A DNA stretch of 40,000 bases from an uncultured Solirubrobacterales bacterium (lineage in GTDB: Bacteria > Actinomycetota > Thermoleophilia > Solirubrobacterales > Solirubrobacteraceae): contig CAWFNV010000003.1 of the NCBI GenBank assembly GCA_963817345.1, positions 1,405,437 through 1,445,436 of the forward strand, given 5' to 3'. The notes below the pieces were generated by a model that did not search any database, was not told the origin of the DNA, and worked only from the letters and a program-made list of their open reading frames with translations. Below, in pieces: positions 9,910 through 27,552 of this stretch (position 1 is the first letter of the stretch; every line of letters begins with the position of its first letter). A program made the translations under genes and the position numbers.

Positions 9910-9981
9910 GCCCTCGTAGTCCAATGGATAAGACGACCGCCTCCTAAGCGGTAGATCCAGGTTCGACTCCCGGCGGGGGCA
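9910..9981 (+). tRNA. tRNA-Arg (anticodon CCU)
   Basis: Manual fold. Acceptor GCCCTCG/CGGGGGC (one G-U pair); D arm GTCC-AATGGATA-AGAC; anticodon stem ACCGC/GCGGT with loop CTCCTAA (anticodon CCT); variable loop AGAT; T arm CCAGG-TTCGACT-CCCGG (one A-C mismatch); discriminator A. CCA is not encoded. It aligns position by position with E. coli argW as I remember it. Confidence 0.85.
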
Positions 9982-9991
9982 CTGCAGCGCG

Positions 9992-10084
9992 ATCATTTCG
10001 ATCTTCCACAAGTCCGAGCATTACTACGAGGTCGTAGACGGCCAGCAGCGCCTGCGTACGTCAGCGACGCTGATGGGACATGTA
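9992..10084 (+). pseudogene. 5'-truncated remnant of a ParB-fold DGQQR-motif gene (DUF262-, DndB- or DpdB-like)
   Basis: The frame-2 translation immediately after the tRNA reads IISIFHKSEHYYEVVDGQQRLRTSATLMGHV. It has no upstream start, since the frame runs open into the tRNA, and it decays into an AT-rich tract. YExxDGQQRLxT is the hallmark block of DUF262/DGQHR proteins. Confidence 0.4.
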
Positions 10085-10260
10085 TTTTTTCTACTTCGTA
10101 TTACCATAGTTACACCAAGTTTTATTTTTATATCGACCCCCCGCCCTTTGCCCAAACACCGCCCGTGGGCCCCAAGTACCCGTTGTGGGCGCCGTCAGGA
10201 CGCCGGCAAGCACCGGACGGGCCTTACGTAACGGACATACGGCGTAGTAGCCTCTCCAGC

Positions 10261-10812
10261 ATGGGAGTGCTCCAAGAGCTGGCGGCTGATCTCGATGTCG
10301 AGGAGCGCACGTTGCGTAGGGCTGCCTCTCAGGGCACCTTGCGAGCCACCCGGATCGGACCGCGGCGGCTACGGCTTGCGTCAGGCGAGCGCGAGTATCT
10401 CCAGGCTCATTGGTCGCTGCTCTCCTGGCTTCGCCGGGCGCTGCGTACCGAGCCTGGCGTTCGTCTGGCCGTCCTCTATGGCTCGCTGGCGCGGGGCGAC
10501 GAGGACGCCGACTCGGATCTCGACCTGCTGTTCTCGTTTGCCGACGATCGTCCCTCGGCGGGCGTCGAGTTGGCTGTCCGCTTGCAACGAGTCAGCGGCC
10601 GTCAGATTGACATAGCCGACCTGCGACGAGTTGAGGTCCGGGCTCCGCTTCTCCTGGACCGGGTCCTTGACGAGGGCCGTGTCCTGGTGGACCGAGATGG
10701 GCAGTGGTGTCTGCTGCGTGAGCGCCACGACGCGATCCGCGCGCGCGCTAGTCGTGATTACCGCCGCCAGATGACCGGTGCAGCCCGCGCGATCGAAGAG
10801 CTGACTCGGTGA
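10261..10812 (+). CDS. HTH plus minimal nucleotidyltransferase (MNT-type) protein, putative antitoxin
   Basis: Within ORF 10165..10812; ATG 10261 (MGVLQELAADL). The N-terminal HTH is EERTLRRAASQGTLRATRIGPRRLRL. The NTase signature is LYGSLARGDEDADSDLDLL (GS-x9-DxD). Confidence 0.7.
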   Translation: MGVLQELAADLDVEERTLRRAASQGTLRATRIGPRRLRLASGEREYLQAHWSLLSWLRRALRTEPGVRLAVLYGSLARGDEDADSDLDLLFSFADDRPSAGVELAVRLQRVSGRQIDIADLRRVEVRAPLLLDRVLDEGRVLVDRDGQWCLLRERHDAIRARASRDYRRQMTGAARAIEELTR

Positions 10813-11342
10813 ACGACTCGGCGCCTTCGAGGATCGAACCTCACATTCTCAAGGCCGAGCAGGCTCGGCTGGCGCGCTTCTTCCAGAGCATCAACAAGCA
10901 CCGCAAGGCCATCGACCTGGCGATCGAGGAGGACTTCGGCGGCGCGCTCGACCCGGTCGAATGGAGAAGCGCCTTCGAGTCCTCAGAGCCCCGCGATGCG
11001 AACCGCACAATGGTCGTCACTGGCGATCACTCGGCCATGCTCAACGCCTATGTCGAGATCCTCAAGGCCAGCGCCGGCGCCCGTCTGATTGGCCTACTCC
11101 CGCACCGTCGCCCACACGCCAGCCAAGTATTCGATGCGCTTGTCGCAGACGGTGGGCTGGGCAAAGAGCAGGCGGCGCTGCTGGACGAGCTCTACGTCCT
11201 CGAGGGCCGACTGGAGCACGCCTCACCGGACGTCGATGCCGAGGAGGTTCGCGCTGCTGTCGAGCGACTCCGCCAAGCACTCCCGGATTTGATCGAGAGC
11301 ACCCACACCTGGCTGCGCCGCCACGGCGTCGAGCTTCGGTAA
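10809..11342 (+). CDS. Cognate partner of the NTase, possible HEPN-like toxin (assignment weak)
   Basis: ORF 10809..11342. Its GTG start overlaps the upstream stop (GTGA), indicating coupling. The protein is helical, and the only HEPN-like element is ARLIGLLPH (R-x6-H). No family firmly recognised. Confidence 0.4.
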   Translation: MNDSAPSRIEPHILKAEQARLARFFQSINKHRKAIDLAIEEDFGGALDPVEWRSAFESSEPRDANRTMVVTGDHSAMLNAYVEILKASAGARLIGLLPHRRPHASQVFDALVADGGLGKEQAALLDELYVLEGRLEHASPDVDAEEVRAAVERLRQALPDLIESTHTWLRRHGVELR

Positions 11343-11348
11343 AGATCT

Positions 11349-11371
11349 CCCGCCAGTGCAGCCCTGGCGGG
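11349..11371. terminator. GC-rich hairpin between convergent genes (possible bidirectional terminator)
   Basis: cccgccag-tgcagcc-ctggcggg forms an 8-bp perfect stem with a 7-nt loop. It lies 7 nt after the stop at 11342 and 22 nt from the MFS stop at 11393. There is no clear U-tract. Confidence 0.5.
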
Positions 11372-11392
11372 GCAGGGCTTGAATAGGCAGCC

Positions 11393-12835
11393 TCAGGTGG
11401 GGGCGTACCCTGCCCGGTCGCTCAACTGCTCTCCACACCGTTGCGCGGTGTGCTGTGCCCATTGCCCAGTGGTTGCTACGCCAATTGCGAGTACGAGCGC
11501 ACCGCAACCTGCGATCAGCCACCACGCCGGGTGGCTCGCCGATGCGAGCTGCGTTCCGATGCCGCTCCCGACGCTCGCGCCGAGAATAGATCCGATCACC
11601 GCCACCCCGAGTGCCGCGCCGACCTGCCTGCTCGTTGACGCGATCGCGGCGGCGACGCCAGCCTGGTTGTTGGGCATGCCCGACACAGCCGTGTAGGTGA
11701 TCGGCGGGTTGACCCAGCCGAAGCCGATGCCGAAGACGGCGTACATCGCGAGCAGCAGCGCCAGCGGCGTCGTGGGCGTTAGCGCTGTCAACACCAGCGC
11801 GCTCGCGACCATGAAGCTGCCGGCGATGCACAGCGGGAGACGAGGCCCACGGCGGCTCAGCACCCGCCCCGACAACGGGCTGCAAATGAGCGCCGCCGCA
11901 GCCATCGGCAGCGTGCAGAGCCCGGCCTGCAGCGCGGAATAGCCGCGGACGTCCTGCAGGTAGAGAGTGTTGATCAGCAGAAACCCGCTAAACCCGGCGA
12001 ACGCGCTGATTGCGATCAGTGTCGCGCCGGAGAACGGTGCGCTGCGGAAGAAGCGCAGATCGATCAGCGGGTCCACTCGGCGTGGCTCGTACAGCACTAG
12101 CGCCACGAGCGCGAGCACCGACAGCGCGAACGTGCCGATCGTCTGTGCCGAGGGCCAGCCGGCGGACGGTCCGTCGATGATCGCGTATGTCAGCGACGCG
12201 AGCGCCACGATCACGAGCACCTGGCCGACGGGATCGATCCGCCGCGGGCGCGGCGCGCGCGACTCGGGCACGAACAGTGCCGTCAGGACGACCGCCGCCA
12301 GCCCGATCGGCACGTTGATCCAGAAGATCGCGCGCCAGTCGATCGCGACCAGCGCACCGCCCACGACCGGACCGAGGCCGAGGCTGATGCCCACCACCGC
12401 TCCCCACGCGCCGATCGCCCGGGCGCGCTCGCGCGGCTCGGTGAACACGTTCGTGATGATCGACATCGCCACCGGGTTCAGCATCGAGCCGCCGACGCCC
12501 TGCAGCGCGCGCGCTGCGATCAGCCAGCCGAGCGTCGGCGCGAAGCTGCATAGCAGCGACCCACCGACGAATACCAGCAGCCCCACCTGGAAGGTGCGCC
12601 GCCGCCCCAGGCGGTCGGCCGTCGAGCCGGACAGCAGCAGCAGGCTTGCCAGGACGATCACATACGCGTCGATCGTCCACTGCAAACCCGACAGCGACGC
12701 GTGCAGGTCGCGATGGATCGACGGCAGCGCGACGTTCACGATCGTGCTGTCCATCGCCACGATCAGCAGGCTCATGCAGCAGATCGCGAGGATCACCAGC
12801 CGCCGGCGGTCGCTGAGCTGCGGTGTGTCGTTCAC
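11393..12835 (-). CDS. MFS transporter, DHA2 (14-TMS drug:H+ antiporter, EmrB/QacA-like) type
   Basis: ORF 11393..12904; I prefer GTG 12835 (VNDTPQLSDRRRLVILAICCMSLLIVAMDSTIVNVALPSI). Typical DHA2 blocks are present (LSGSTADRLGRRRTF, many TM helices). Host-like high G+C. Confidence 0.85.
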   Translation of the reverse strand: MNDTPQLSDRRRLVILAICCMSLLIVAMDSTIVNVALPSIHRDLHASLSGLQWTIDAYVIVLASLLLLSGSTADRLGRRRTFQVGLLVFVGGSLLCSFAPTLGWLIAARALQGVGGSMLNPVAMSIITNVFTEPRERARAIGAWGAVVGISLGLGPVVGGALVAIDWRAIFWINVPIGLAAVVLTALFVPESRAPRPRRIDPVGQVLVIVALASLTYAIIDGPSAGWPSAQTIGTFALSVLALVALVLYEPRRVDPLIDLRFFRSAPFSGATLIAISAFAGFSGFLLINTLYLQDVRGYSALQAGLCTLPMAAAALICSPLSGRVLSRRGPRLPLCIAGSFMVASALVLTALTPTTPLALLLAMYAVFGIGFGWVNPPITYTAVSGMPNNQAGVAAAIASTSRQVGAALGVAVIGSILGASVGSGIGTQLASASHPAWWLIAGCGALVLAIGVATTGQWAQHTAQRCGEQLSDRAGYAPT

Positions 12836-12880
12836 CTCGATAGTTCTAGCGTCATGACCACAGTTCGCGATCTGTCCGCA

Positions 12881-12920
12881 CCATGGGAGACCATGACTGG
12901 CCATGACAGATCATGAACAC
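12881..12920 (+). repeat. Four tandem 10-bp YCATG-phased direct repeats (candidate operator array)
   Basis: ccatgggaga / ccatgactgg / ccatgacaga / tcatgaacac occupy exactly 12881, 12891, 12901 and 12911. A fifth tcatgacca sits at 12852. The array lies between the divergent MFS and HTH-queC genes. Confidence 0.6.
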
Positions 12921-12962
12921 CAAGAGAAGGACAGCTTTGCTACACAGGAGGAAGGCGTGGAT

Positions 12963-13856
12963 ATGCTCTCAGTGCGGCGTGTCGCTAAGCACCTCGGCAT
13001 CTCGGAAAGCGGCGTCTATCGTCTCATAGACGCCGGTGACCTGTCCAAGCTGAAGGTGGGCACTCGTACCGTGTTTGAGCCAGCGGAGGTTGAGCGATAT
13101 ATCGCTCGATGTCGCGCGGCGTCTCGCACTGAGCAAGAAAGCAACTGGTCCGGGGAAGGACGCAGGGCCGTCGTCTTGCTGTCAGGCGGCCTCGACTCGG
13201 CCACCGTCTTGGCAATCGCTCAGAACCAGGGCTACGAGGCATACGCGATCTCCTTCCGCTACGGCCAGCGTCATGCAATCGAGCTTGATGCGGCCCGTGC
13301 GGTCGCGAGAGCCGCTGGGATACAGCCTCCTGTAGTCACAGAGATCAACCTTGGGATCTTTGGTGGATCTGCCCTTACGGCAGATATCGTGGTGCCGAAG
13401 CACGACTCAGTCGCAGAACTCGGAGAGGACATCCCATCGACCTACGTGCCGGCTCGAAACACGATCTTCCTCTCCTGCGCTTTCGGATACGCAGAGACCC
13501 TTGAGGCCGACGACATTTTTATCGGCGTAAACGCACTCGACTACAGCGGCTACCCCGACTGTCGCCCTGAGTACATCAATCACATCGAAGGCACTTTCAA
13601 TGTTGCTTCCAAGCGCACCGTGGAAGGCCATAGACTCCGTATCCACACTCCGCTGATCGACATCACAAAGGGCGAGACCGTCCGTCGCGGAATCGAGCTC
13701 GGGGTCGACTACTCACTCACGCGCTCCTGCTATGACCCAGCGCTTGCGGGCGAGGCATGCGGGCATTGCGACTCTTGCCTGCTGAGACTGCGTGCGTTCG
13801 CCGAAAATGACCTTGAGGACCCGATCTCCTACCAAGGCCAGAAGCTGGCGGCCTAG
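12963..13856 (+). CDS. queC: 7-cyano-7-deazaguanine (preQ0) synthase fused to an N-terminal excisionase/MerR-type HTH domain
   Basis: ORF 12903..13856. I prefer ATG 12963, which is preceded by aggaggaagg and avoids the CATG repeat array. The HTH is [47 protein letters not shown]. The QueC core has [11 protein letters not shown] (PP-loop), YVPARNTIF and the Zn motif [10 protein letters not shown]. Confidence 0.85.
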
Positions 13857-13858
13857 TT

Positions 13859-14620
13859 GTGCTCGCTTCGGCACCATGCTTGAGCGACTCGAGCGCTTTG
13901 GACGATGCGACTTTCCCCGTGGTCGAGATCTTTGGCCCCACAGTTCAGGGAGAGGGTCCAGAGGCGGGTCGTCCGGCGTACTTCGTGCGCTTCGGTGGGT
14001 GCGACTATCGCTGTAGTTGGTGTGACTCGATGCACGCAGTCGAGCCAGGCCTTGTGCGTGCTGCAGAGCGTCTCAGCGCGACCGATGTGATCGCTCGGCT
14101 GCGGGATAGACCCTCGGGCCCCGATCTCGTGGTGCTCAGCGGAGGCAATCCGGCTCTATTGGAGCTAGGTCAACTCGTAGAAGAGTTGCAGCGCGAGGGC
14201 AGGCAGGTCGCCGTCGAGACTCAAGGGAGCGTGTGGCGGGACTGGCTTGGCCGTGTAGACAGTCTTGTCATTTCGCCAAAGGGCCCGTCGTCGGGCATGG
14301 TCAACAGCAAGCATGCCAAGCAATTCCGAGCTTTTATGGGCAAGGCGTGTTCTGCCGGAGCATCTCTAGCACTGAAGATCGTCGTTTTTGATGGCGAAGA
14401 TCTCGACTGGGCTCGGCAGACCGCTGGCGATTACTCCGAGATCCCTTTGTATCTGTCCGCAGGCACCGACGTGGACCTCTCCGAGGAGCAGACCATCAAT
14501 CGTCTTCGTGACCGCTACCGCTGGCTGTGCGAAGCAGTCTCCACTAATGCTGATCTTCGCCATGCACGAGTGCTCCCACAGCTGCACGTGATCGCCTGGG
14601 GAACGGCACTGGGGGTCTGA
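13859..14620 (+). CDS. queE: 7-carboxy-7-deazaguanine synthase (radical SAM)
   Basis: ORF 13859..14620 (GTG start). It has [11 protein letters not shown] and the radical-SAM cluster [10 protein letters not shown]. It begins 3 nt after the queC stop. Confidence 0.85.
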
Positions 14621-14621
14621 C

Positions 14622-14990
14622 ATGGAGCTCTACAAGGAATTCACTTTCGAGGCGGCTCACCGTCTACCCAATGTTGCACCAGAGCACAAGTGCGCCCGCC
14701 TGCACGGTCACTCCTACCGTGTGATCATTCACATAAGCGGAGAGGTCGACCCGCAAACCGGCATGGTCATGGACTTTGCCGACATCAAGGCCGCATTCAA
14801 GCCGATCGTTGCAGGGCAACTGGATCACTACTACTTGAATGAGGTAGAGGGCCTAGAGAATCCAACCTCGGAGAACCTCGCACAGTGGATCTGGCAAAGG
14901 CTTCAGCCTCTCTTGCCGCTGCTTTCAGCGGTGGAGGTCAGGGAGACGTGTTCCTCGGGGGTGCTCTACAAGGGCGAGCGGGAGCGATGA
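14622..14990 (+). CDS. queD: 6-carboxy-5,6,7,8-tetrahydropterin synthase
   Basis: 122-aa ORF: [10 protein letters not shown]...[11 protein letters not shown]...[10 protein letters not shown]. This is the typical QueD/PTPS His-triad layout. Confidence 0.9.
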
Positions 14991-15808
14991 GCCTGCTGGC
15001 AGATAAGACGCTTCCAGATGTCCAGGGCGGCAGAGACGAACGTGGCGTGGCGCTCAACGATGTCGGGATCTCGGGCCTGCGCTACCCAATCACCGCCGAA
15101 TGTGCTGATGGCAGCAGCCAACAGACAATCTGCGAGGCGCAACTCACCGTCGCATTGGCCGCTCAGGCTCGGGGCACCCACATGAGCCGATTCGTCGAGG
15201 CTTTGCATGAGCAACACGACTCGCATGCAGTTTCCCCGGCAAGCACCCTGAGGATGGCACGAGAACTCGCGAGTCGTCTCGATACTGACGAAGCCGCAAT
15301 CAATCTCAGCTTTCCCTTGTTCATCCAGCGCAAGGCTCCGGTCACCGAGCATACGGCCCTACTGGGTATCGACTGCACGCTCAGCGCGCGTGCCGGGAAC
15401 TGCGGAGTGAGCCTACAGATTGGTGCCCGTGTCCCAGTCACGAGTCTCTGTCCCTGCTCCAAGGAGATCGCTGACTACAGCGCCCATTCTCAGCGCGGTT
15501 ACGTGACGATAGACGCGCTGGATGGCTGCTGGGCTAAGGGAGGCGACGGGATATGGCCAGAGGAGTTGCTTACCGTCTGTGATCAGGCAGCCTCGGCTCC
15601 GATCTATCCACTACTCAAGCGTCCCGATGAGCGTCACGTGACGATGCTTGCTTACGACCGTCCCGCGTTTGTCGAGGACCTGGCGCGCGAAGTCGCGACC
15701 GCACTACAAGCAGACGAGCGGATTGCGGGCTTTGACCTCGAGGTCGTCAACCAAGAGAGCATCCATGATCATCAAGCACTGGCACGATTGCAATGGAGGC
15801 GCTCGTGA
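14987..15808 (+). CDS. folE2: GTP cyclohydrolase I type 2 (GCYH-IB, FolE2)
   Basis: Within ORF 14885..15808. ATG 14987 overlaps the queD stop (ATGA). Motifs ARGTHMSRF and [21 protein letters not shown] are characteristic of FolE2/MptA. Confidence 0.8.
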
Positions 15809-16480
15809 GTCGGGAGATCCTCATTGTGAGTTCGTGTACGGCTACTAAGGTCCAGACGGCCGATGGGCAACCGCGTTGGGCCGAGTCGCTGTATGCCGGC
15901 CAGCAGCATGTGCGCCTTATGCGAGGTATAGATCGATACCGGCAGGCTGGAAAGCCAGCAGGTGAGTTGAGCTTTCGCATCCTGTCTGCATTTCATGGGC
16001 TCGTTCGGCCACGTAAGTCGGTCTCCTCGTACGATCACTCGTTTTCCGGTCTACCGACAGCTTGCTATCCAGCGCCAAGGCCGCGAAAAGAACGTACCCC
16101 AAGACATCCGCAAGCTCCTAAACAAGCCATTTGACCTTGGGGTGCTGATGCTTGGGGATCCGTACTTGAGAGCCTGCGACCTTGACTGCGACGTCAAACT
16201 CGGTGGTCCGACGATCGTATTCTGCTCCCCGAAAGTCGCGAGGTGGCTCCCCGATCTTGACGGGTCGCGGCTCGTACAGTTGACCAATCACGAGGCACGC
16301 CGATTCTCCTGTGGGCTGATAGCGCTCAAGGGCGAGCTAGGCGGCCGTATCCTTATCGCGCTCTCCCAGCAGTCGGCGATTCTGAGCACGTTGATAAGCC
16401 CCGACATTGATTTGCTGGATTGGCTGGAGGCAATGCCACCGACCTCCTTGCCCGAACATCAACTGCTAGCAGCCGGGTAA
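15805..16480 (+). CDS. YaaA/DUF328-like protein, candidate DpdC; reading frame interrupted (net +1) within about 16042-16060
   Basis: ORFs 15793..16134 (frame 1) and 15995..16480 (frame 2) read as one protein. GTG 15805 overlaps the folE2 stop (GTGA). ILIVSSCTATK, ILSAFHGLVRPRKSVSSYDHSF and SCGLIALKGELGGRILI parallel the E. coli YaaA blocks [29 protein letters not shown] and YAKKARGLMSRFII, which I quote from memory. Removing one T from the T4 run at 16042-16045 restores ...YDHSFPVYRQLAIQ.... Confidence 0.5.
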
Positions 16481-17742
16481 TGGACTTCTACTTCCCTGAT
16501 AGTCAGGATCAAATTGATCCCAGATATTGCTTTGACGTTGAGGAGCATCCACCTCACCACGTTCGCCAGCGCGATGACTACTACGCGCACGAGGCGCACT
16601 TTCAGCCGCCATACACAGGCATGCTCGTATCAAAGACAATGGTCGATGGCTATCAAGACACAGGACGCTACACGCCTGCTCAACGTCATCGGCTCTACCG
16701 CCTAGGCGTCCATGACTTCTTTCGTCTGCCAGTCGGGATGAACACACTGGGTGACTGTGGCGCATTCTCATATGTCGCCGAGCAAGATCCACCCATCACC
16801 GTCGATGAAGTCATCGACTTCTACGAGGGTTGCGGGTTCGATCTCGGTATCTCCGTCGACCACGTGATTCTCGACTACCGTGCAGACGCCGAGGAGTCTG
16901 GCGAGATCGACCCTCGATGGATAGAACGACAGGAGACCACCCTTCGATGCGCTGGCGAGTTTCTAGAGCGCCACGCTGAACGTGGTTGCAGCTTTACACC
17001 TGTCGGGGCAGCCCAGGGCTGGAGTCCTCAGTCCTATGCTTACTGTGTAGAGGAGCTCCAGCGCCTTGGCTACAAGCGGATTGCCCTAGGGGGAATGGTC
17101 CCGCTAAAGACCATGCAAATCATGGCTTGCCTCAAGGCTGTTCACAAGGTGCGTAACAAGAATACGCAGTTCCACCTACTTGGCGTAACCAGGACCGAGT
17201 ATGTAGTGAACTTCGCAGCTTTTGGGGTCACTAGCTTTGATTCGACCTCTCCGTTTCGCCAAGCGTTCAAGGACGACAAGGACAACTACTGGACGAAGGA
17301 CCACAAGTACGTGGCGCTTCGTATTCCCCCAAGCGAAGGCAATGCCAAACTTCAAGCTCTTATCCGTGCTGGACAACTCGACCAACGCGAGGTACGCAGC
17401 CTCGAGGTCGCGTGTCTTACCGCCTTGCGGGCATATGATCGTGGCGACAGGACGCTAATGGGAGCAATCACCGCTCTTCGGGACTATGAGCAACTGGTTA
17501 GTCCAGAAAAGGACCACACACAGGCCTACCAGCGAATGCTCGAGGATGCTCCCTGGCAGCGCTGCCCATGTGCGGTTTGTAAAACCGACGGCATTGAGGT
17601 AGCCATTTTCAGGGGAACTGAGCGCAACAAGCGTCGCGGCTTTCACAACCTGTGGGTCTTTAATCAGACATTGCAAGGATACATCGCCGGAGGCGAGTCA
17701 GTTAATGCTATGACAGAGGAGATAATCGGTGAACGCGTCTGA
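16480..17742 (+). CDS. dpdA: DpdA-type TGT-family transglycosylase (predicted DNA-guanine to preQ0 exchange)
   Basis: Within ORF 16420..17742. ATG 16480 overlaps the upstream TAA (TAATG). The TIM-barrel TGT-like core includes GISVDHV, ALGGMVP and TSFDSTSP. The Zn motif is CPCAVCK, followed by FRGTERNKRRGFHN, as I remember for the DpdA/TgtA5 family. Confidence 0.75.
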   Translation: MDFYFPDSQDQIDPRYCFDVEEHPPHHVRQRDDYYAHEAHFQPPYTGMLVSKTMVDGYQDTGRYTPAQRHRLYRLGVHDFFRLPVGMNTLGDCGAFSYVAEQDPPITVDEVIDFYEGCGFDLGISVDHVILDYRADAEESGEIDPRWIERQETTLRCAGEFLERHAERGCSFTPVGAAQGWSPQSYAYCVEELQRLGYKRIALGGMVPLKTMQIMACLKAVHKVRNKNTQFHLLGVTRTEYVVNFAAFGVTSFDSTSPFRQAFKDDKDNYWTKDHKYVALRIPPSEGNAKLQALIRAGQLDQREVRSLEVACLTALRAYDRGDRTLMGAITALRDYEQLVSPEKDHTQAYQRMLEDAPWQRCPCAVCKTDGIEVAIFRGTERNKRRGFHNLWVFNQTLQGYIAGGESVNAMTEEIIGERV

Positions 17743-18871
17743 GTTGCGTCTGCCGGCACTTGAGGTTCGGCAAGGTGATCGGCGCCTGTATCAGTTCGCA
17801 TTGGACGGCAAGCAATTGGCCGATGTAACCACAGTGTCGCGGATCAATCGTAACGACGCTGGTCACATTGGCGGGTACCAGCGCCCCGAGGCCCTCAAGC
17901 ACGTCAAGGCTATACGCACCTACCTAGAGAGCCCAGCGGCCCTGATGGCAAATGCTCTAGTGGTTGCATTTGACACACGGGTCCGCTTTGAGCCCGCAGG
18001 CAGACGTTCCCCCAAGGCCTACTCAACGATCGGGACGCTGATCCTACCCGTGGTGCAAGGCGCGGCCGACGAGGACAAGCTGGGCTGGGTTGTAGATGGC
18101 CAGCAGCGGTCCGCTGCATTGCGTGACGCTGACCTTGATCGATTTCCCGTGCCAGTAGTTGCCTTCATCGCCGATGATCTCCGAGAGCAGCGAGCCCAGT
18201 TCATCCTCGTCAACAACACCAAGCCGTTGCCAAAGGGGCTGATTCACGAGCTGCTGCCGTCTACAGACGGCGAGTTGCCCGCCGCACTTGCGCGCAAGCG
18301 CTACCCGGCGAAGCTTCTGGAACTGCTCAACTATCTCCCCGGTTCACCGATGGAGCGCGCTATTCGCACTCCCACGATGCCGGAGGGGCGAATCAAGGAC
18401 AACTCAGTATTGAAGATGCTGGAGTGCTCGATCAGCGATGGTGCGCTCTACCGCTTTCGAGATCCCGAGACCGGAGAAGGCGACACGAGCAAGATGATCG
18501 AGACACTCTGCAACTTCTGGACCGCTGTCAGAGAAACGTGGCCAGACGCGTGGGATTTGTCGCCTCGCAAGTCGCGCCTCATACACGGCGTGGGCATCAG
18601 CGCGCTTGGCTTCATCATGGACGACATCACCGAACGGCGATCGAGACGACAGGCCGTCCCAAGCACCGAGACCTACAAGGAAGACCTACAGTACTTGGAT
18701 TCCGTCTGCGCCTGGACCGAGGGCTATTGGGACCTTGGCCTCGGGCAAAAGCGTCGATGGGATGGACTACAAAACACCCCCAAGGACATCGCTCTACTTG
18801 CCGACTTCTTGGTTCGCCACTACCGCGCTTGTGCGGATGGGGCGGAGCGTACCAAGCAAGAAGCTGCATAA
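17729..18871 (+). CDS. dpdB: DGQHR-domain ParB-like protein (DpdB-type), DGQQR variant
   Basis: ORF 17729..18871 (GTG start, 14-nt overlap with dpdA). It has YQRPEALKHVKAIRTYL, WVVDGQQRSAAL and VVAFIADDLREQRAQFILVNNTKPLPKGL, which is the DndB/DGQHR QxFxxxN block. Confidence 0.75.
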   Translation: MNASELRLPALEVRQGDRRLYQFALDGKQLADVTTVSRINRNDAGHIGGYQRPEALKHVKAIRTYLESPAALMANALVVAFDTRVRFEPAGRRSPKAYSTIGTLILPVVQGAADEDKLGWVVDGQQRSAALRDADLDRFPVPVVAFIADDLREQRAQFILVNNTKPLPKGLIHELLPSTDGELPAALARKRYPAKLLELLNYLPGSPMERAIRTPTMPEGRIKDNSVLKMLECSISDGALYRFRDPETGEGDTSKMIETLCNFWTAVRETWPDAWDLSPRKSRLIHGVGISALGFIMDDITERRSRRQAVPSTETYKEDLQYLDSVCAWTEGYWDLGLGQKRRWDGLQNTPKDIALLADFLVRHYRACADGAERTKQEAA

Positions 18872-18878
18872 CCGCTAC

Positions 18879-19109
18879 TTATGCATCTACATCCAGCGCG
18901 CTGAGAATATGATCGGCTTGGATCTCGAAGCTGGCACGTTCTACCAGTGGAGTACGACGCCACTGTTCGATCAGCACGGCGCGAAGCCACAGTTGATCGA
19001 GTCGTCGTCGCTCGCCTAGACTTCCACGTGCCTTCAAGAGATACTCGCTCAGCGACAGACCGTCCGTAGACGACATTCCAAATCTAATCGGCGGCGGGCA
19101 GCGACTCAT
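18879..19109 (-). CDS. Small hypothetical protein at the convergence point (weak call)
   Basis: ORF 18879..19109, 76 aa (an internal ATG gives MSSTDGLSLSEYLL...). Codon usage resembles the island genes. No family recognised. Confidence 0.3.
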   Translation of the reverse strand: MSRCPPPIRFGMSSTDGLSLSEYLLKARGSLGERRRLDQLWLRAVLIEQWRRTPLVERASFEIQADHILSALDVDA

Positions 19110-19147
19110 ATCTCAGTACTCTCGCCTGCAACGGAGAGGACGCCGTC

Positions 19148-20008
19148 CTATTCCACGTTCAGCCCAGCCTTTTGGACGAGGTAGTGGTACGCGGCATCGC
19201 GTGTCTGGCGCGTGCTGCTCAGGCTCCAACCGTTTGGTTTGCCGGTCTGGTCGAACTGCTGGATCAGGATCTTGCCATGCCAGTCCGGGTTGCCTTCGAC
19301 GAGGTTTCCATCCTCGTCGTAGTGGTCGCGCGCCATCAGCGTCACGGTGACGCTCTTACCCTCACGCCTGGTCTTTACGTTGCCTGCCAACTTGGCGAGT
19401 GCATCCTTCCACTCGTTCTCGGAGCGCCAGTCCGTGCCGCTCATCGCGTACTTCTGCCAGAGCTCAAACGCAAGCCTGAATATCGGGAAGTACATGATGT
19501 TGGACATCGCGAAGGATCTCTCGCGAAGCAACTGCCGTGACTTACCCGATGCGGTTGGCTTGAACTCGGGGTAGAGCGAGGCCCACTCGGTGTAGAAGTG
19601 TGAGAAGAAGTTGACCAAGTCGGCGTATTTGGCCTTGTCTTTCTGTACCTCGAGGAGCTGCTTCTGGAACGGCTTGATCGCAGAGTCTAGGGTCGCGAGC
19701 GTAGTGAGCTTTCGCGAAGCCTTTGCGATCGTCGACGCGCGGATCTCGATCTCCTCTCGGTCGAAGATCGGACATTGTTTGATCAACGCCATGACGAACT
19801 TCCTCGACGCCGTCTTGTTCGGGTGCATGTCGATCGCCGCACCCACAGTGGGCCGCTTGCCCTCGACGTTGTACTCGTCAAACAAGCGTCCCTCGAACAT
19901 CGGTGTGATGTTGAAAATCGTCACGAACATGCAGGCGTTTTCTTCATCGAAGGGGTCGAACTTAGCGAGCAGCTTCAGAAGCAAGAGCGCGTTGAACGGC
20001 CTGACCAT
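19148..20008 (-). CDS. C-terminal portion of a second DndB/DGQHR-like protein
   Basis: ORF 19148..20008. VTIFNITPMFEGRLFDEYNVEGKRPTVGAAIDM matches the DndB-type block (xxF...QxFxDxN...kPt) also seen in dpdB here. A long helical C-terminal region follows. Confidence 0.6.
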   Translation of the reverse strand: MVRPFNALLLLKLLAKFDPFDEENACMFVTIFNITPMFEGRLFDEYNVEGKRPTVGAAIDMHPNKTASRKFVMALIKQCPIFDREEIEIRASTIAKASRKLTTLATLDSAIKPFQKQLLEVQKDKAKYADLVNFFSHFYTEWASLYPEFKPTASGKSRQLLRERSFAMSNIMYFPIFRLAFELWQKYAMSGTDWRSENEWKDALAKLAGNVKTRREGKSVTVTLMARDHYDEDGNLVEGNPDWHGKILIQQFDQTGKPNGWSLSSTRQTRDAAYHYLVQKAGLNVE

Positions 20009-20507
20009 CGGGCGCGATCTCCACCTCGTCAGGGATCTTGGTCGTGTCGTCCTTCCACTCGTTGAGGAGGTAGTGCAGGTAGTGGCGGTGGGCGCTGTCG
20101 GGGATCGTGAGCGTGGAGTGCACAGTGAGCCTGCGCTTCGCAGCGTCGTAGGTGATCTCCTGTCTACCGTTCTTGCGAGCGTTCCAGGTGATGTCAGGGT
20201 TGAAGAACTCGTGGCTCTCTTCAGGGTCTTTGTTGGAGCTGTCGAGGCCTAGTAGGAACTTTGCCGCCATCGACGCAGCACGCTTGGGGTCGATGTCGAG
20301 TTCGACGTTCGTGACGTCCAGTAGCGTCTTCTCGTCGAACGGCTCCTTGGCACCACGCTGGTACTTTGGGGCGTACTTCAGGTTGCCGTCGATCAAGCCT
20401 TGGGCTAGATCACCGGAGGAGATCTTTCCCTTGTAGATCGGCCCGACGCCTGGCCGGCAGATGCGGTCAACGTCCTCGATAACAATGTTCTTGACAAACT
20501 TAGGCAT
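19962..20507 (-). CDS. N-terminal ParB-fold portion of the second DndB/DGQHR-like protein (DSAHR variant)
   Basis: Within ORF 19962..20621. ATG 20507 is preceded by aggaga. YKGKISSGDLAQGLIDGNLKYAPKYQRG...KRAASMAAKFL...LTIPDSAHRHYLHYL follows the DndB/ParB N-terminal domain layout. It overlaps the next ORF by 47 nt in a frame offset equivalent to +1 nt. Confidence 0.6.
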   Translation of the reverse strand: MPKFVKNIVIEDVDRICRPGVGPIYKGKISSGDLAQGLIDGNLKYAPKYQRGAKEPFDEKTLLDVTNVELDIDPKRAASMAAKFLLGLDSSNKDPEESHEFFNPDITWNARKNGRQEITYDAAKRRLTVHSTLTIPDSAHRHYLHYLLNEWKDDTTKIPDEVEIAPDGQAVQRALASEAAR

Positions 20508-20536
20508 GTGGTATCTCCTGGTGAATTGGTTGTCGG

Positions 20537-21001
20537 TTATCCGGCGATCCGGGCAAGCATCGGCGGACCAGACCGCCCCGTCGCGAGTTGATAGCGGCGC
20601 GACAGTTGCGCAAAGCCCCAAACGTCGATGCGCTGTTGGTGGCGACTGATACGGTTATGCGCTGCCGCGACACGCTCGGCGACGCGCCGCTCGATGACCT
20701 CAGCGGACAATCCCTCGCGAAGTGCCCCGCGCCGGATCTCCGCGTCGTTGATAATGAGTATGCCTAGAGCTGGGCTGATCTCGGCGAGCGTGTCGATGCT
20801 CCCTCGGAGGGCCTTTGGCCCCTCGCTGACCGCGACCTCAAGGGCGACCGCAGGGACCTCCGGCAGTGCGTACCCGTCACCGGGCAGCAGCCACACGCCG
20901 TCGGTGGGCAGCTCCCGTGACCACATCAGGCGTGTCCTGTAGCCGAGCGCCTTGCCGATCTCCAAGAACATGTATTGCGCGTCAGCGTGTCCGGGTCGCA
21001 C
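20537..21001 (-). CDS. Hypothetical protein with a restriction-endonuclease-like motif pattern
   Basis: ORF 20537..21001, 154 aa. HADAQYMFLEIGKALGYRT...TDGVWLL...PAVALEVAVSEGPKALRGSIDTLAEI resembles the small H..E..G / D.vW / aFEVe..t nuclease-like module I remember attached to R-M and defence proteins. This is not a firm family call. Confidence 0.35.
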   Translation of the reverse strand: MRPGHADAQYMFLEIGKALGYRTRLMWSRELPTDGVWLLPGDGYALPEVPAVALEVAVSEGPKALRGSIDTLAEISPALGILIINDAEIRRGALREGLSAEVIERRVAERVAAAHNRISRHQQRIDVWGFAQLSRRYQLATGRSGPPMLARIAG

Positions 21002-21261
21002 TTTGTAATCCTTCGGTCACAGTTTTGGCACATATCTACGAATATCCTGCGAAAGGCTAGCGTACTATCTGAGCGATTGCAACGAAGAGTCGTAGTAATT
21101 CGTCGTCTCTGTCCGAATGAGCCCCGCAATTTCCGGCCTTCTGCCCAGATGTGCGTCGAAGCGTTCCTGCGTGCTGCCCGGTTGCTGCACTGCCGACGAG
21201 GCTGGCATGTCCTTTCTAATTCGGGCTTGATTCTAGAAAGTCATGATGCTAGGCTGATGGC

Positions 21262-21699
21262 ATGGGTAAGCGTGACGCACAATCTGTGACGCTGGCGCTG
21301 ATCTCGCTGGACGACGCCCGTGATGCACTGGCTAGCGGCAGCCAGGACGCGGCGATACGCGCCATGGAGGAAGCTCACCAGACGCTCGAGGGGATCAGAC
21401 ATGCCGCTGGCGTACCGGTCGCGCGTGCCGCGCGACGGCTCGGCGTGTCTGTGCCAACCGTGCGCTCATGGATAGAGCGTGGCGCGCTGCGCGCGATCAA
21501 GGGCTCGAGCCCCGTGGAGATTCAACCGGAGAGTCTGCGAAGCGTGAGCCGGGCGCTAGACGAGCTGCGTGAGCGCGGCCAGGACCGCGAGTGGCTCCAG
21601 GCGCTCGTCGACTATCTCGATGACCGCGAGGCACGCCAAAGCCCCGCACTCAAAGAGGGCCTACAGCAGCTCAAGCGCGGGGAACTCGAACCGGCCTGA
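21262..21699 (+). CDS. Excisionase/MerR-type HTH protein, antitoxin-like
   Basis: ORF 21262..21699. The HTH is VPVARAARRLGVSVPTVRSWIERGALRAIKG. Its stop overlaps the next start (TGATG). Confidence 0.55.
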   Translation: MGKRDAQSVTLALISLDDARDALASGSQDAAIRAMEEAHQTLEGIRHAAGVPVARAARRLGVSVPTVRSWIERGALRAIKGSSPVEIQPESLRSVSRALDELRERGQDREWLQALVDYLDDREARQSPALKEGLQQLKRGELEPA

Positions 21700-24522: not shown

Positions 24523-27500
24523 GTGCCGAGTGCCGCCGAAGCCACTTCTACGGCGGCTCTGTCTCGAAGTCCAGAGCCCTTGATGGCCGAGTCCACTCCA
24601 GTGGCCCTCGCGGCCGCGCCTACGCCCACTTCCGCCGAAATTGCTCGCGCGGAGAAGTTCGTGCGCGATCGCTTCCTACACGAGGGCGAGGATCCCGCCG
24701 TTGCGCTGGGCTCTGGTTCCCCGCGCAGGCGCGCGCTGGAGCAGGCGCTGGCGGAGCTGGACAGCGGTGCCAAGTACCCATCGACTGCTTGGCGGCGGGA
24801 CTTCTCGCTGCTGCTGGGGCTGGAGCGGCTGCTGTCTGAGGACGAGCCAAAGCTGGCGGACGGCACTGTGCTCTCAGCACACCAGGTGGACGCCCTGTCA
24901 GGAACGCTGACAGCGCTGCTTGCTGAGGCTCAGCGCACGTCCTGGAACGGTGACGGTCGCGCTGCTGCCACCACGGCCTCGCCTGAGCTGCTGGCGTCCG
25001 CGGCGATCCTCGGCCCGGACGATGAGCCACCGGCGGACTCTGCAAGTCTCGCCAACGGGAGTGCACATGGTGCTGATTCGCGCGCGGACCCCGACTCGGC
25101 AGATGACGCCTATGAGGCTGACGAGGAGGACGTTGACGAGGACGACGAGGAGGAGTCCGAGGACGAGGACGACGACGAGCTCGGCCCGGTCCAGCGGGCG
25201 GCCCCCGATGAGGACGATGAGGACGAGGAGGAGGACGAGCTCGAGGAGGAGGACGACGAGGTCCTGGAGGAGGAGGCCGAAGAGGAGCTTCAGGGCGACT
25301 CCGAGGAGGAGCCTCGCGACTGGGTCGATGAGGAGGAGGATGAGGAGGAGTCGCTCGCCGAGCAGCCCGAGGACCCAAATGCGGCGAAGCGGTTCTGGTT
25401 CGAGCACGCGACCGGCGCAGGCAAGACAGTCGCCGCGCTTGGATTCGTAGAGGCGTCGCAGACCGGTGGGATCCTGATCCTCACGCACCGGCGCAACCTC
25501 GTTGACCAATTCCATGGCGAGCTGCGCGCGCGGGGGTATGCAAAGCGCATCTCGAAGGCGCTGCTGAAAGGCGAGGACTCGGTCAAAGGGGGTGGGCGGG
25601 GGGGTGGGTGGGGCCCTGTAACTGTTGAGACCTACCAATGGTTCGTGCGCAACGCGGGCAAGATCTCGAGCGCCTACACGATCGTCATCTGCGACGAGGC
25701 GCACACCGCGCTGGGTGAGAAGACGAGCGGCGCGATCCGCGAATGGACGGGGCCGATCTTCATCGGCATGACCGCCACGGGCGCGCTGATCGCCCGCCAC
25801 GTCACCGACCTGTTCCCCACCCAGACCTCGCGCTTCGATCTCGCCCAGGCCGCCCGGCGCGGCGTGATTGCGCCGCTACGCTGCGTGCGCATTTCACCTG
25901 GTGTGGGCGTGCGCACGATCGCCAAGGTGCCCCTGCGCCGTGGCGAGGTGGACACCGAGTTCGATCAGGACGAGCTGGCGAAACTTCTCGACCAGGACCC
26001 ATTCAACATGGCGGCCGCGAACCTGTATAAGACCCGCTTCAACGGCGTGCCGGGGGTCGTGTATGCGGCAGGCGTGCGCCACGCGTACAACCTCGCCGAG
26101 GCGTTTCGCGCCGAAGGACTGAAGGCGCAGGCCGTTTCCGGCGAGACGCCCAAGCGTGAGCTCGCGGAGATCCTCGCGCGCTACGAGCGCGGCGACATCG
26201 ACGTGCTGATCAACGCACAGCTGCTGGCCGAGGGCTGGAACAGCCCGCGAGCAACCGTCTGTGTCCACCTCGCGCCGACGGCGTCAAAACGCATCTACCA
26301 GCAGCGCGTCGGGCGCGTCACCCGCCGGCACCCTGGCAAGGAGGCGGGGCTGGTTGTCGACTTCGTGCACCCGGCCACCAAGAACGACGACCCGGTCGTG
26401 ACGCTGCACTCGTTGCTCGACCGCGACGTGTACAGGGGCGGGGCAATCGTCGTCGGGCCCATTCGCCGCGGACGCGGCCGGCGGATGCGCGTGGAGCGCC
26501 GTGTGCTGCCGGTGTGTGTGGAGGAGGAGCGGCGGTTCGCTGTGTTCGAGCGCGAGCTGTGGCGGATCGCGGTCGAGCATCTCGACTACGGCGAGCAGCA
26601 CCTGTGGGCGGCGCTCGCTGGCGCGCGCGTGACCCCCAACGGCTGGCGCAGGGCACGGGCGATGCTGCACTTTGATCGGGCCGGCGAGCTCAAGAGCCGG
26701 TTCTTGATCACTGCGGTGGAAAGAAATCCGAACGCGCAGCTGCGACTGCGCGCTCTGACCGACATCGCTGCGGCGAAGGACCCGGATGCGTTTGACACGG
26801 CGATCGACATCATCGGCGGCTGGCCGCGCGAGGAGCGCAGAGAGGCATCGAAGATCATGCTGCGCGCGATGGTGGAGCGGCGCATCGGCCGTCGTGACCA
26901 GGCCAACGCTTGGATCTGGCGCCTGGCCGAGTACACGCGTGAGATCCACGAGGAGTACGCAGTGCAGCGCTGGCCTGAGACCAAGCGGCTGCTCGGCCTG
27001 CTGGTGAACTCTTCGGGAGGCGCGCACGCCCGCAACGCCAGACGACTGATCCACGCTGCGCGCAAGCAGGACCGGCGGCTGGCGGCTGCGCTGCTAGCGG
27101 CCGCGCTCGCACACACACCCGAGGCCGAGGAGGCCCTGCGCGGTGCGCGCACGCGCATGGCGCGCAAGCCCCCGGCGCTGGCTCGCGAGCTGCTGCGCAA
27201 CTTCCCCAAGCGCCGTGCCCGCAACAACCGGCGCAGGCGCAAAGGCAGCGCCAAGGGTGGCGCCGGGGACAATATGGAGGGGGTGGCGCAGACGGCGGCC
27301 GCGGCGACGGGTACCGATCGTCGAGACGTAGACACGGACGTGGCCACTCCGAAGTCCGCGGGCAGGCGTAGAGGTCGGGGGAGCAAACGCGGCAAGCAGG
27401 CCCAGGAGCCGAACGACGCAGTTCTGGACGAGGCGCTGACGAGCGAGGCGATGGCGTCTGCGAGCACGAACGGCAGCGGGTTGGCGCCGGCGGAAGAGGG

Positions 27501-27552
27501 CAAGCTGGACCGCGACGTCGCTGAGGCGCTGGATCACGCGCAGAAGCAGTGA
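24523..27552 (+). CDS. Large SF2 (ResIII/DEAH-type) helicase with an acidic insert and a basic C-terminal tail
   Basis: ORF 24523..27552 (GTG; alternative ATG 24583). Motifs: LSAHQVDAL, Walker A HATGAGKT, DEAH box VICDEAHTA, GMTATG, and helicase-C motifs LLAEGWNSP and QQRVGRVTR. An acidic tract of about 100 aa separates HQVDAL from Walker A. Confidence 0.8.
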   Translation: MPSAAEATSTAALSRSPEPLMAESTPVALAAAPTPTSAEIARAEKFVRDRFLHEGEDPAVALGSGSPRRRALEQALAELDSGAKYPSTAWRRDFSLLLGLERLLSEDEPKLADGTVLSAHQVDALSGTLTALLAEAQRTSWNGDGRAAATTASPELLASAAILGPDDEPPADSASLANGSAHGADSRADPDSADDAYEADEEDVDEDDEEESEDEDDDELGPVQRAAPDEDDEDEEEDELEEEDDEVLEEEAEEELQGDSEEEPRDWVDEEEDEEESLAEQPEDPNAAKRFWFEHATGAGKTVAALGFVEASQTGGILILTHRRNLVDQFHGELRARGYAKRISKALLKGEDSVKGGGRGGGWGPVTVETYQWFVRNAGKISSAYTIVICDEAHTALGEKTSGAIREWTGPIFIGMTATGALIARHVTDLFPTQTSRFDLAQAARRGVIAPLRCVRISPGVGVRTIAKVPLRRGEVDTEFDQDELAKLLDQDPFNMAAANLYKTRFNGVPGVVYAAGVRHAYNLAEAFRAEGLKAQAVSGETPKRELAEILARYERGDIDVLINAQLLAEGWNSPRATVCVHLAPTASKRIYQQRVGRVTRRHPGKEAGLVVDFVHPATKNDDPVVTLHSLLDRDVYRGGAIVVGPIRRGRGRRMRVERRVLPVCVEEERRFAVFERELWRIAVEHLDYGEQHLWAALAGARVTPNGWRRARAMLHFDRAGELKSRFLITAVERNPNAQLRLRALTDIAAAKDPDAFDTAIDIIGGWPREERREASKIMLRAMVERRIGRRDQANAWIWRLAEYTREIHEEYAVQRWPETKRLLGLLVNSSGGAHARNARRLIHAARKQDRRLAAALLAAALAHTPEAEEALRGARTRMARKPPALARELLRNFPKRRARNNRRRRKGSAKGGAGDNMEGVAQTAAAATGTDRRDVDTDVATPKSAGRRRGRGSKRGKQAQEPNDAVLDEALTSEAMASASTNGSGLAPAEEGKLDRDVAEALDHAQKQ
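25084..25377 (+). repeat. GAG/GAC-rich low-complexity coding tract (poly-Asp/Glu)
   Basis: Nearly uninterrupted gag/gac/gaa codons encoding DSADDAYEADEEDVDEDDEEESEDEDDDE...DEDDEDEEEDELEEEDDEVLEEEAEEE...DEEEDEEES. Confidence 0.8.

Follow-up and report, generated by a model that had tools for sequence, protein, structure and literature searches.

A split short-form dpdC-like gene in a Solirubrobacterales dpd island is very probably intact, its frameshift reflecting a long-read consensus error

DpdC, referred to in the literature as DUF328-like (PMC5699537), converts dPreQ0-DNA to dADG-DNA in S. Montevideo (PMC10164549). The DpdA/B proteins of this organism act on a partial motif, CxGCxG, with a G then C target, and pUC19 modified by them resists only PvuII (CAGCTG) (PMC10164549). 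In sequencing contexts, 7-deazaguanine has been named a previously unrecognised source of systematic errors, and all dnd+ or dpd+ isolates gave error-rich Oxford Nanopore Technologies (ONT) assemblies with one basecalling model (bioRxiv 10.64898/2026.03.20.713089). The present analysis concerns a 40,000-nucleotide stretch (the window) from an uncultured Solirubrobacterales bacterium (assembly GCA_963817345.1, contig CAWFNV010000003.1, positions 1,405,437 to 1,445,436, forward strand), in which a dpdC-like gene within a dpd island is split by a frameshift. We consider it very likely that the gene encodes one intact short-form DpdC-family protein of ~224 amino acids (aa) and that the frameshift is a long-read consensus or basecalling error at a modified CAGCTG.

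The gene and its lesion are placed as follows.

15805..16480, + strand: short-form DpdC-family gene, ~224 aa if read through, recognised by homologs, alignment and an AlphaFold (AF2) model; alternative start at ATG 15793
16058..16064, + strand: CAGCTTG, where the +1 break lies; one base in excess of all homologs, located by a 57-homolog scan; three assemblies differ exactly here
16042..16045, + strand: T4 run, real, not the break point, as judged from the sequence and the homolog scan

Two open reading frames (ORFs) are present in the window, one in frame 1 (15793-16134) and one in frame 2 (15995-16480), overlapping by 140 nt. Reading through the T4 run yields a stop-free protein of 228 aa that finds 218 homologs, the closest of them 79% identical over 98-100% of its length; among the best 120, nearly all are single ORFs of 214-242 aa and about ten are shorter. 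The homolog alignment runs unbroken across the frame break, the AF2 model of the read-through forms a single domain (predicted local distance difference test, pLDDT, 92.9; predicted template modelling score, pTM, 0.89), and apart from the frame break no decay is seen in either half. By homology, the two ORFs are the halves of one gene of ~224 aa. Its start is likely GTG 15805, which gives 224 aa, and not ATG 15793, because most close homologs are 224 aa long and begin at the equivalent of the former codon. Several elements of the initial annotation hold at this level: the ORFs in frames 1 and 2 do read as one protein, as the full-length homologs, over 200 in number and 221-228 aa long, attest, with the net +1 offset it had described, and the Pro/Arg-rich continuation of frame 1 after the break is a tail without homology. 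The proposed coupling to both neighbours is likewise present, TGA 15806-15808 of folE2 overlapping GTG 15805 as GTGA, and TAA 16478-16480 overlapping ATG 16480 of dpdA as TAATG.

The position of the break, which had been assigned to the T4 run at 16042-16045, has to be revised. Every single-base deletion and insertion was scanned and each was scored against 57 homologs; the best repair fell within 16058-16064 (CAGCTTG) for all 57, at TT 16062/16063 for 33 of them, and at 16042-16045, where a tttt does exist, for none. Across the junction the homologs share the consensus SYDHSFSGLPTAAIRRQGREKNVP; frame 1 still agrees with it (SYDHSFSGLPTA) over the six codons that follow the T4 run, and frame 2 takes it up again at AIQRQGREKNVP. 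Since frame 1 is correct beyond the T4 run and the repairs always fall at 16058-16064, the break does not lie at T4. Dropping one T from CAGCTTG gives CAGCTG together with the family consensus PTAAI, and reading GCT-T as one step gives ...SGLPTAAIQRQ... According to these alignments, the lesion is one inserted base (+1) at CAGCTTG 16058-16064, outside any homopolymer. A repair at the T4 run was considered and rejected: it is stop-free, but its seven residues PVYRQLA disagree with every homolog.

Independent assemblies of a near-identical strain read the same bases differently. The 90% cluster of the 161-aa ORF includes a 224-aa protein identical to the read-through at 221 of 224 residues. The L136 contig (run ERR10755937), 99.7% identical to window 14585-17017, reads GACCATTGCT at the break and carries a 224-aa ORF in frame, ERZ25039474 contig_29034 (L137/L177; same strain as L136), 99.8% identical to the window, reads GACATTGCT and is out of frame by -1, and the window itself reads GACAGCTTGCT, a +1. 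Three assemblies thus provide three readings of the same 3-5 bases (16059-16063), with flanks otherwise identical, and the Ile that L136 encodes at the break occurs in none of the 57 homologs. Across the 11.4 kb common to L177 and the window (9938-21340), 17 places are discordant, distributed over sites and genes as listed below.

GTCGAC-type sites: 7 discordant places, comprising each of the 4 GTCGAC sites in the window and, besides, GTTGAC or GTCAAC variants
AGCT-core sites: 6 discordant places, both CAGCTG sites included
Plain single-nucleotide polymorphisms (SNPs) or homopolymer differences: 4 discordant places
Other TCGA sites: 0 of 98 discordant
CTGCAG sites: 0 of 5 discordant
14578..14583, + strand: sole intact CAGCTG in the shared island; L177 reads CAAGTTG here, which breaks its queE
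19148..20621, - strand: second split gene, DndB-like and convergent with dpdB; +1 break at ~19990-19996, at a GTCGAC-type error site near 19993, reading GTTGAAC here and GTCAAC in L177

The discordance of GTCGAC as against other TCGA sites suggests modification of a SalI-type site in the organism. The GTCGAC differences are substitutions, G>A at the fourth or C>T at the third position of the motif, and either assembly may be the one that carries them. In L177, the sister assembly, the DndB-like gene runs as a single ORF of 452 aa, so that its split is most likely an assembly error too and not a two-part protein. Both island breaks lie in the two motifs on which the assemblies disagree. We regard the dpdC-like frameshift, with strong confidence, as a long-read consensus error and not as a real mutation.

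The background rate of such breaks was calibrated across the own genome, which comprises 3.04 Mb in 6 contigs, with the window on a 2.7-Mb contig. Long ORFs of same-genus relatives, filtered by GC content at third codon positions (GC3), were translated and searched against it by tblastn, and a frame break was scored where one protein aligned in two adjacent frames.

Own genome (few contigs, long-read-like): 709 orthologs / 275k aa; 41 frame breaks, ~1 per 20 kb of conserved genes
G018 and G015 (short-read style relatives): 73k aa; 1 doubtful frame break

Broken conserved genes thus amount to ~5% in the own assembly and include orthologs that are 94-98% identical, a proportion of broken conserved orthologs that cannot be biological. 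Base-level mapping was obtained for 29 breaks (23 +1 insertions, 6 -1), mostly outside homopolymers. Removing the extra base restores CAGCTG in 6 of the 23 +1 breaks, that base typically being an A or G at CAG^CTG, and AGCTG/CAGCT in 9 of 23; the expectation for CAGCTG is 0.3% per position, which gives P ~8e-9 for 6/23 with tied positions allowed for, and P ~1e-8 to 2e-9 across the CAGCTG and AGCTG/CAGCT enrichments. An independent replication set restored CAGCTG in 3 of 11. Break sites on the own contig C3 include 612375, 2381628, 2149044, 1954406, 1086880 and 2480780, and the contexts that recur in this genome are CAG^CTG and GAG^CTG(CAG). A homology-free detector of frame changes based on GC3 phase was dropped, as 16% of positions were callable and its output was dominated by gene boundaries.

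These observations have to be weighed against the possibility that the +1 insertion is a real and recent mutation, in which case the locus would hold a fresh dpdC-like pseudogene, with preQ0 inserted but not converted to ADG. The break does stand in the deposited consensus, the sister assembly L137 is likewise out of frame at the site, and a second island gene is split too, as would be expected of a decaying island, defence islands being known to accumulate pseudogenes. However, that second gene is intact in L177, neither half of the dpdC-like gene decays further, the motif at the site is the one most enriched in errors, one of the three discordant sequences at the 3-5 bases is in frame, and the same type of +1 break affects ~5% of conserved housekeeping orthologs, not all of which can be real; a genuine mutation is accordingly judged unlikely. 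A functional split, whether by programmed +1 frameshifting or as a genuine two-subunit protein, would draw on the 140-nt overlap of the ORFs, but no slippery or shift-prone motif is conserved at the site and the ATG of the downstream ORF (15995) lies inside the conserved N-terminal domain. This option is rejected as extremely improbable because all homologs (>200) are single ORFs and the near-identical strain has a single 224-aa ORF.

Several points nevertheless weigh against an artefact affecting an intact dpdC-like gene. CAGCTG itself stands at the break in none of the three assemblies, the strain represented by L136/L177 is slightly different (two plain SNPs), which allows a strain-specific real mutation, and the CAGCTG motif was picked post hoc from the first 13 sites before being replicated. 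The true base sequence at 16058-16064 is a deduction, and the platform on which the own genome was sequenced is deduced from contiguity, error profile and relatives. On the protein level, the product scores below all 11 curated PADLOC models of DpdC (PDLC02813-02823; best E 0.006-0.04), and because these hidden Markov models (HMMs) failed and the canonical C-terminal part is missing, its DpdC activity stands as a prediction.

The initial annotation had left open whether the break was real, leaving DNA at the dPreQ0 stage, or a sequencing error with dpdABC intact; the evidence favours the latter. Under the error reading, 15805-16480 would encode one intact ~224-aa protein whose translation is coupled to that of folE2 before it and of dpdA after it; DpdA and DpdB would swap guanine for preQ0 in DNA, and the dpdC-like product would then hydrate the 7-cyano to the 7-amido group, taking dPreQ0 to dADG. 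CAGCTG would be modified in the organism and systematically misread, leaving the extra base at 16058-16064 in an assembly that would be long-read and most likely Nanopore, and the true sequence would most likely read Thr-Ala-Ala-Ile across the site. On this reading the locus truly holds a compact dpd modification cassette in which the short-form DpdC-family gene is intact.

Assignment of the protein to the DpdC family draws on a reference alignment of 32 canonical sequences, consisting of Ilumatobacter fluminis BDK89_0143 and 31 relatives; BDK89_0143 itself, taken as control, matches PADLOC DpdC at 1.5e-64 and adjoins DpdB. Comparison of the family of the window protein with these 32 sequences by hhalign gave 98% probability (E 1.7e-13, 138 columns), with residues 5-146 aligning to canonical residues 3-188, and pairwise BLASTP between the two gave 3e-6. 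In tblastn searches, canonical DpdC queries matched the short-form genes down to 3e-11 in 30 loci from other genomes (a synteny set taken from a species-representative genome collection); they matched nothing else in those loci, and no second DpdC was found in the 30 loci or in the own genome.

The domain libraries describe the protein less clearly. An NCBIfam scan matched no family. Pfam DUF6884 (PF21818) scored 24.3 bits (E 3.6e-5; gathering cut-off 30 bits) on the window protein, over residues 14-116 only, and all 58 aligned family members match DUF6884 at E<=0.01, the best at 8e-9; among canonical DpdC proteins, 24 of 32 match DUF6884 and 3 of 32 match YaaA. The YaaA/DUF328 HMM (PF03883) reached 11.6 bits (E 0.2) on the window protein, below its cut-off of 29.6, and gave weak matches in 8 of the 58 members (best 5.6e-5). 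Foldseek returned E. coli YaaA (5CAJ) as the best PDB match of the AF2 model (prob 0.99, E 1.1e-3), and the superposition is a weak fold match (template modelling score, TM, 0.38/0.34; root-mean-square deviation, rmsd, 8.2; 12% identity). By profile score, the nearest Pfam family is DUF6884, the likeness to YaaA/DUF328 being distant and faint. Judged by its sequence, the protein represents, within the DpdC family, a short-form subfamily that currently lacks annotation.

The genes surrounding it make up a compact cassette.

12903..13856, + strand: HTH-QueC (Pfam QueC 6e-72, HTH_17)
13859..14620, + strand: QueE-like radical SAM enzyme (Pfam Radical_SAM), syntenic with queE of related loci
14622..14990, + strand: QueD, PTPS family (Pfam PTPS 6e-39)
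14885..15808, + strand: FolE2 GTP cyclohydrolase (Pfam GCHY-1 4e-78, NCBIfam FolE2); its stop overlaps the start of the dpdC-like gene
16480..17742, + strand: DpdA DNA transglycosylase (NCBIfam NF041059 5e-170, PADLOC DpdA 1e-169); its start overlaps the stop of the dpdC-like gene
17729..18871, + strand: DpdB, a DGQHR/DndB-family ATPase (NCBIfam NF041060 4e-142)

The order queC-queE-queD-folE2, then the short-form gene and dpdA, recurs in 22 of the 30 loci; dpdA lies directly downstream of the short-form gene in 25, with dpdB following in 18, and the loci include those of the isolates Solirubrobacter soli DSM 22325 and Singulisphaera sp. GP187. Position and homology together support the gene as the DpdC candidate of the island, and from the same two lines its product is predicted to hydrate dPreQ0 in DNA to dADG. 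The earlier placement of DpdC in a DUF328/YaaA-like family therefore stands in part: the DpdC candidacy is sustained by synteny (22-25 of 30 loci) and by hhalign at 98%, while the nearer Pfam family is DUF6884 and YaaA stays at E 0.2. The same division appears in the profile comparison of the repaired protein that had been proposed, where hhalign recovered DpdC homology (98%) and the curated DpdC and YaaA HMMs remained below cut-off. The earlier statement that DpdC turns preQ0-DNA into dADG agrees with the findings in S. Montevideo (PMC10164549).

The wider setting of the cassette is less regular. The dpd island was not found in 30 relatives searched, 18 of them of the same genus, and no canonical dpdD-K genes were detected near the cassette among the ORFs scanned. 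A 1009-aa ResIII/Helicase_C protein encoded at 24523-27552 (+ strand), with weak similarity to DpdF and PbeA, is the sole helicase-like protein close to the cassette that qualifies as a candidate restriction arm. Past ~21550, downstream of the island, identity to the sister strain (L177 15400-20333) falls abruptly from 99.8% to ~90% or less, and the allele of the ResIII/helicase gene (24523-27552) has diverged from that of L177; the abrupt drop and the diverged allele together indicate that the island is a mosaic or a recombination unit. The upstream part of L177 carries GmrSD and RES-domain genes.

Turning to what produces the errors at CAGCTG, the island itself may be responsible, as a special case of the artefact reading that includes the CAGCTG copy inside the dpdC-like gene: DpdA/DpdB would place 7-deazaguanine in CAGCTG, at which the basecaller or polisher would insert a base. 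We advance this cause tentatively, as possible but doubtful, the alternative being cytosine methylation by a PvuII-type methyltransferase. CAGCTG is the PvuII site blocked by S. Montevideo DpdA/B (PMC10164549), and systematic errors are reported for ONT assemblies of dpd+ isolates (bioRxiv 10.64898/2026.03.20.713089). A search of 41 genomes of the genus found DpdA in only 2; CAGCTG +1 insertions occur in both DpdA-positive long-read metagenome-assembled genomes (MAGs; 6/23 and 3/11), and 0 of 13 mapped breaks lie at CAGCTG in two DpdA-negative long-read MAGs, although the comparison is one of 2 genomes against 2.

Own genome, DpdA present: 23 +1 insertions mapped, 6 at CAGCTG
G327 (long-read MAG), DpdA present: 11 +1 insertions mapped, 3 at CAGCTG
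G005, DpdA absent: 8 breaks mapped, mostly -1 deletions, some near homopolymers, 0 at CAGCTG
G333, DpdA absent: 5 breaks mapped, mostly -1 deletions, some near homopolymers, 0 at CAGCTG

Over the stretches covered, the two DpdA-negative genomes contain 295 and 180 CAGCTG sites. Against an origin in the island, errors are also frequent at GTCGAC and GAGCTC, neither of which fits the G-then-C target of CxGCxG, so that the organism certainly bears other modifications; at AGCT and GTCGAC the substitutions are G>A or C>T, as methylcytosine typically produces (PMC11610573); and the own genome carries four methyltransferase genes that are candidate modifiers.

Own contig C3, 1862251, 510649, 828050 and 647582: N6/N4-type DNA methyltransferase genes (PF01555)

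A search of the own genome for a PvuII-like endonuclease (PF09225) gave no match, but the control matched nowhere either. The dpd-gene breaks of three other Dpd-positive MFD MAGs also speak against the island as cause, for they do not lie at CAGCTG, and the link to this motif is therefore not universal; all three splits are +1 insertions, one of them at a GAGCTC-like site. In these long-read MAGs dpdA or dpdB is split at L066 ~7117, L070 ~7214 and L072 ~8474, and among the 30 loci, those from short-read MAGs or isolates showed no dpdA or dpdB split.

Altogether, the preferred reading of a consensus error in an intact gene has consequences for annotation, in that the island is to be scored as a complete dpdA-dpdB-dpdC module and not as one arrested at dPreQ0, and pseudogene calls in the own assembly, affecting ~1 in 20 conserved genes, are untrustworthy. 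The short ~224-aa form of DpdC is missed by the PADLOC and NCBIfam models and by current defence-system HMMs, so that Dpd islands of Solirubrobacterales, Planctomycetota, Myxococcota and others will be annotated without DpdC. The clustering of errors on CAGCTG, the one site published for a DpdA, offers a cheap lead for mapping 7-deazaguanine from existing Nanopore data. If the island does cause the errors, the +1 insertions that Dpd-positive Nanopore MAGs show at CAG^CTG would be a footprint of 7-deazaguanine modification, and the consensus-error motifs of public long-read MAGs could reveal Dpd activity and its sequence specificity in uncultured bacteria.

Compared with the described systems, the locus combines shared and divergent traits. 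As with DpdC in the S. Montevideo system (PMC10164549, PMC5699537), the short-form gene adjoins dpdA, dpdB and preQ0 biosynthesis genes. Its product has in common with canonical DpdC an N-terminal core of ~145 residues and the motifs (S/T)CTxxK, A(E/D)SLYxG..H, SAG(Y/H)GL, (S/P)Y..FS and (D/S)PYLRAC; the invariant Cys15 and Lys19 are candidates for catalytic residues. In contrast, canonical DpdC measures ~305-320 aa and the short form 224-228 aa, ~90 aa less, and the C-terminal ~80 residues of the latter do not align to the canonical C-terminal half; unlike canonical DpdC, the short form is placed between folE2 and the dpdA-dpdB pair, without dpdD-K genes nearby. YaaA (5CAJ), the top solved-structure match of the model, is yet a peroxide-stress protein not linked to dpd genes. 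With regard to known Nanopore modification errors (PMC11610573; bioRxiv 10.64898/2026.03.20.713089), those encountered here are likewise tied to motifs (CAGCTG/AGCTG, GTCGAC, GAGCTC) and likewise recur across assemblies, with none in short-read assemblies of relatives, whereas the dominant lesion here is a +1 consensus insertion as opposed to the substitution of the known cases, with platform and modification chemistry here being the presumed ones.

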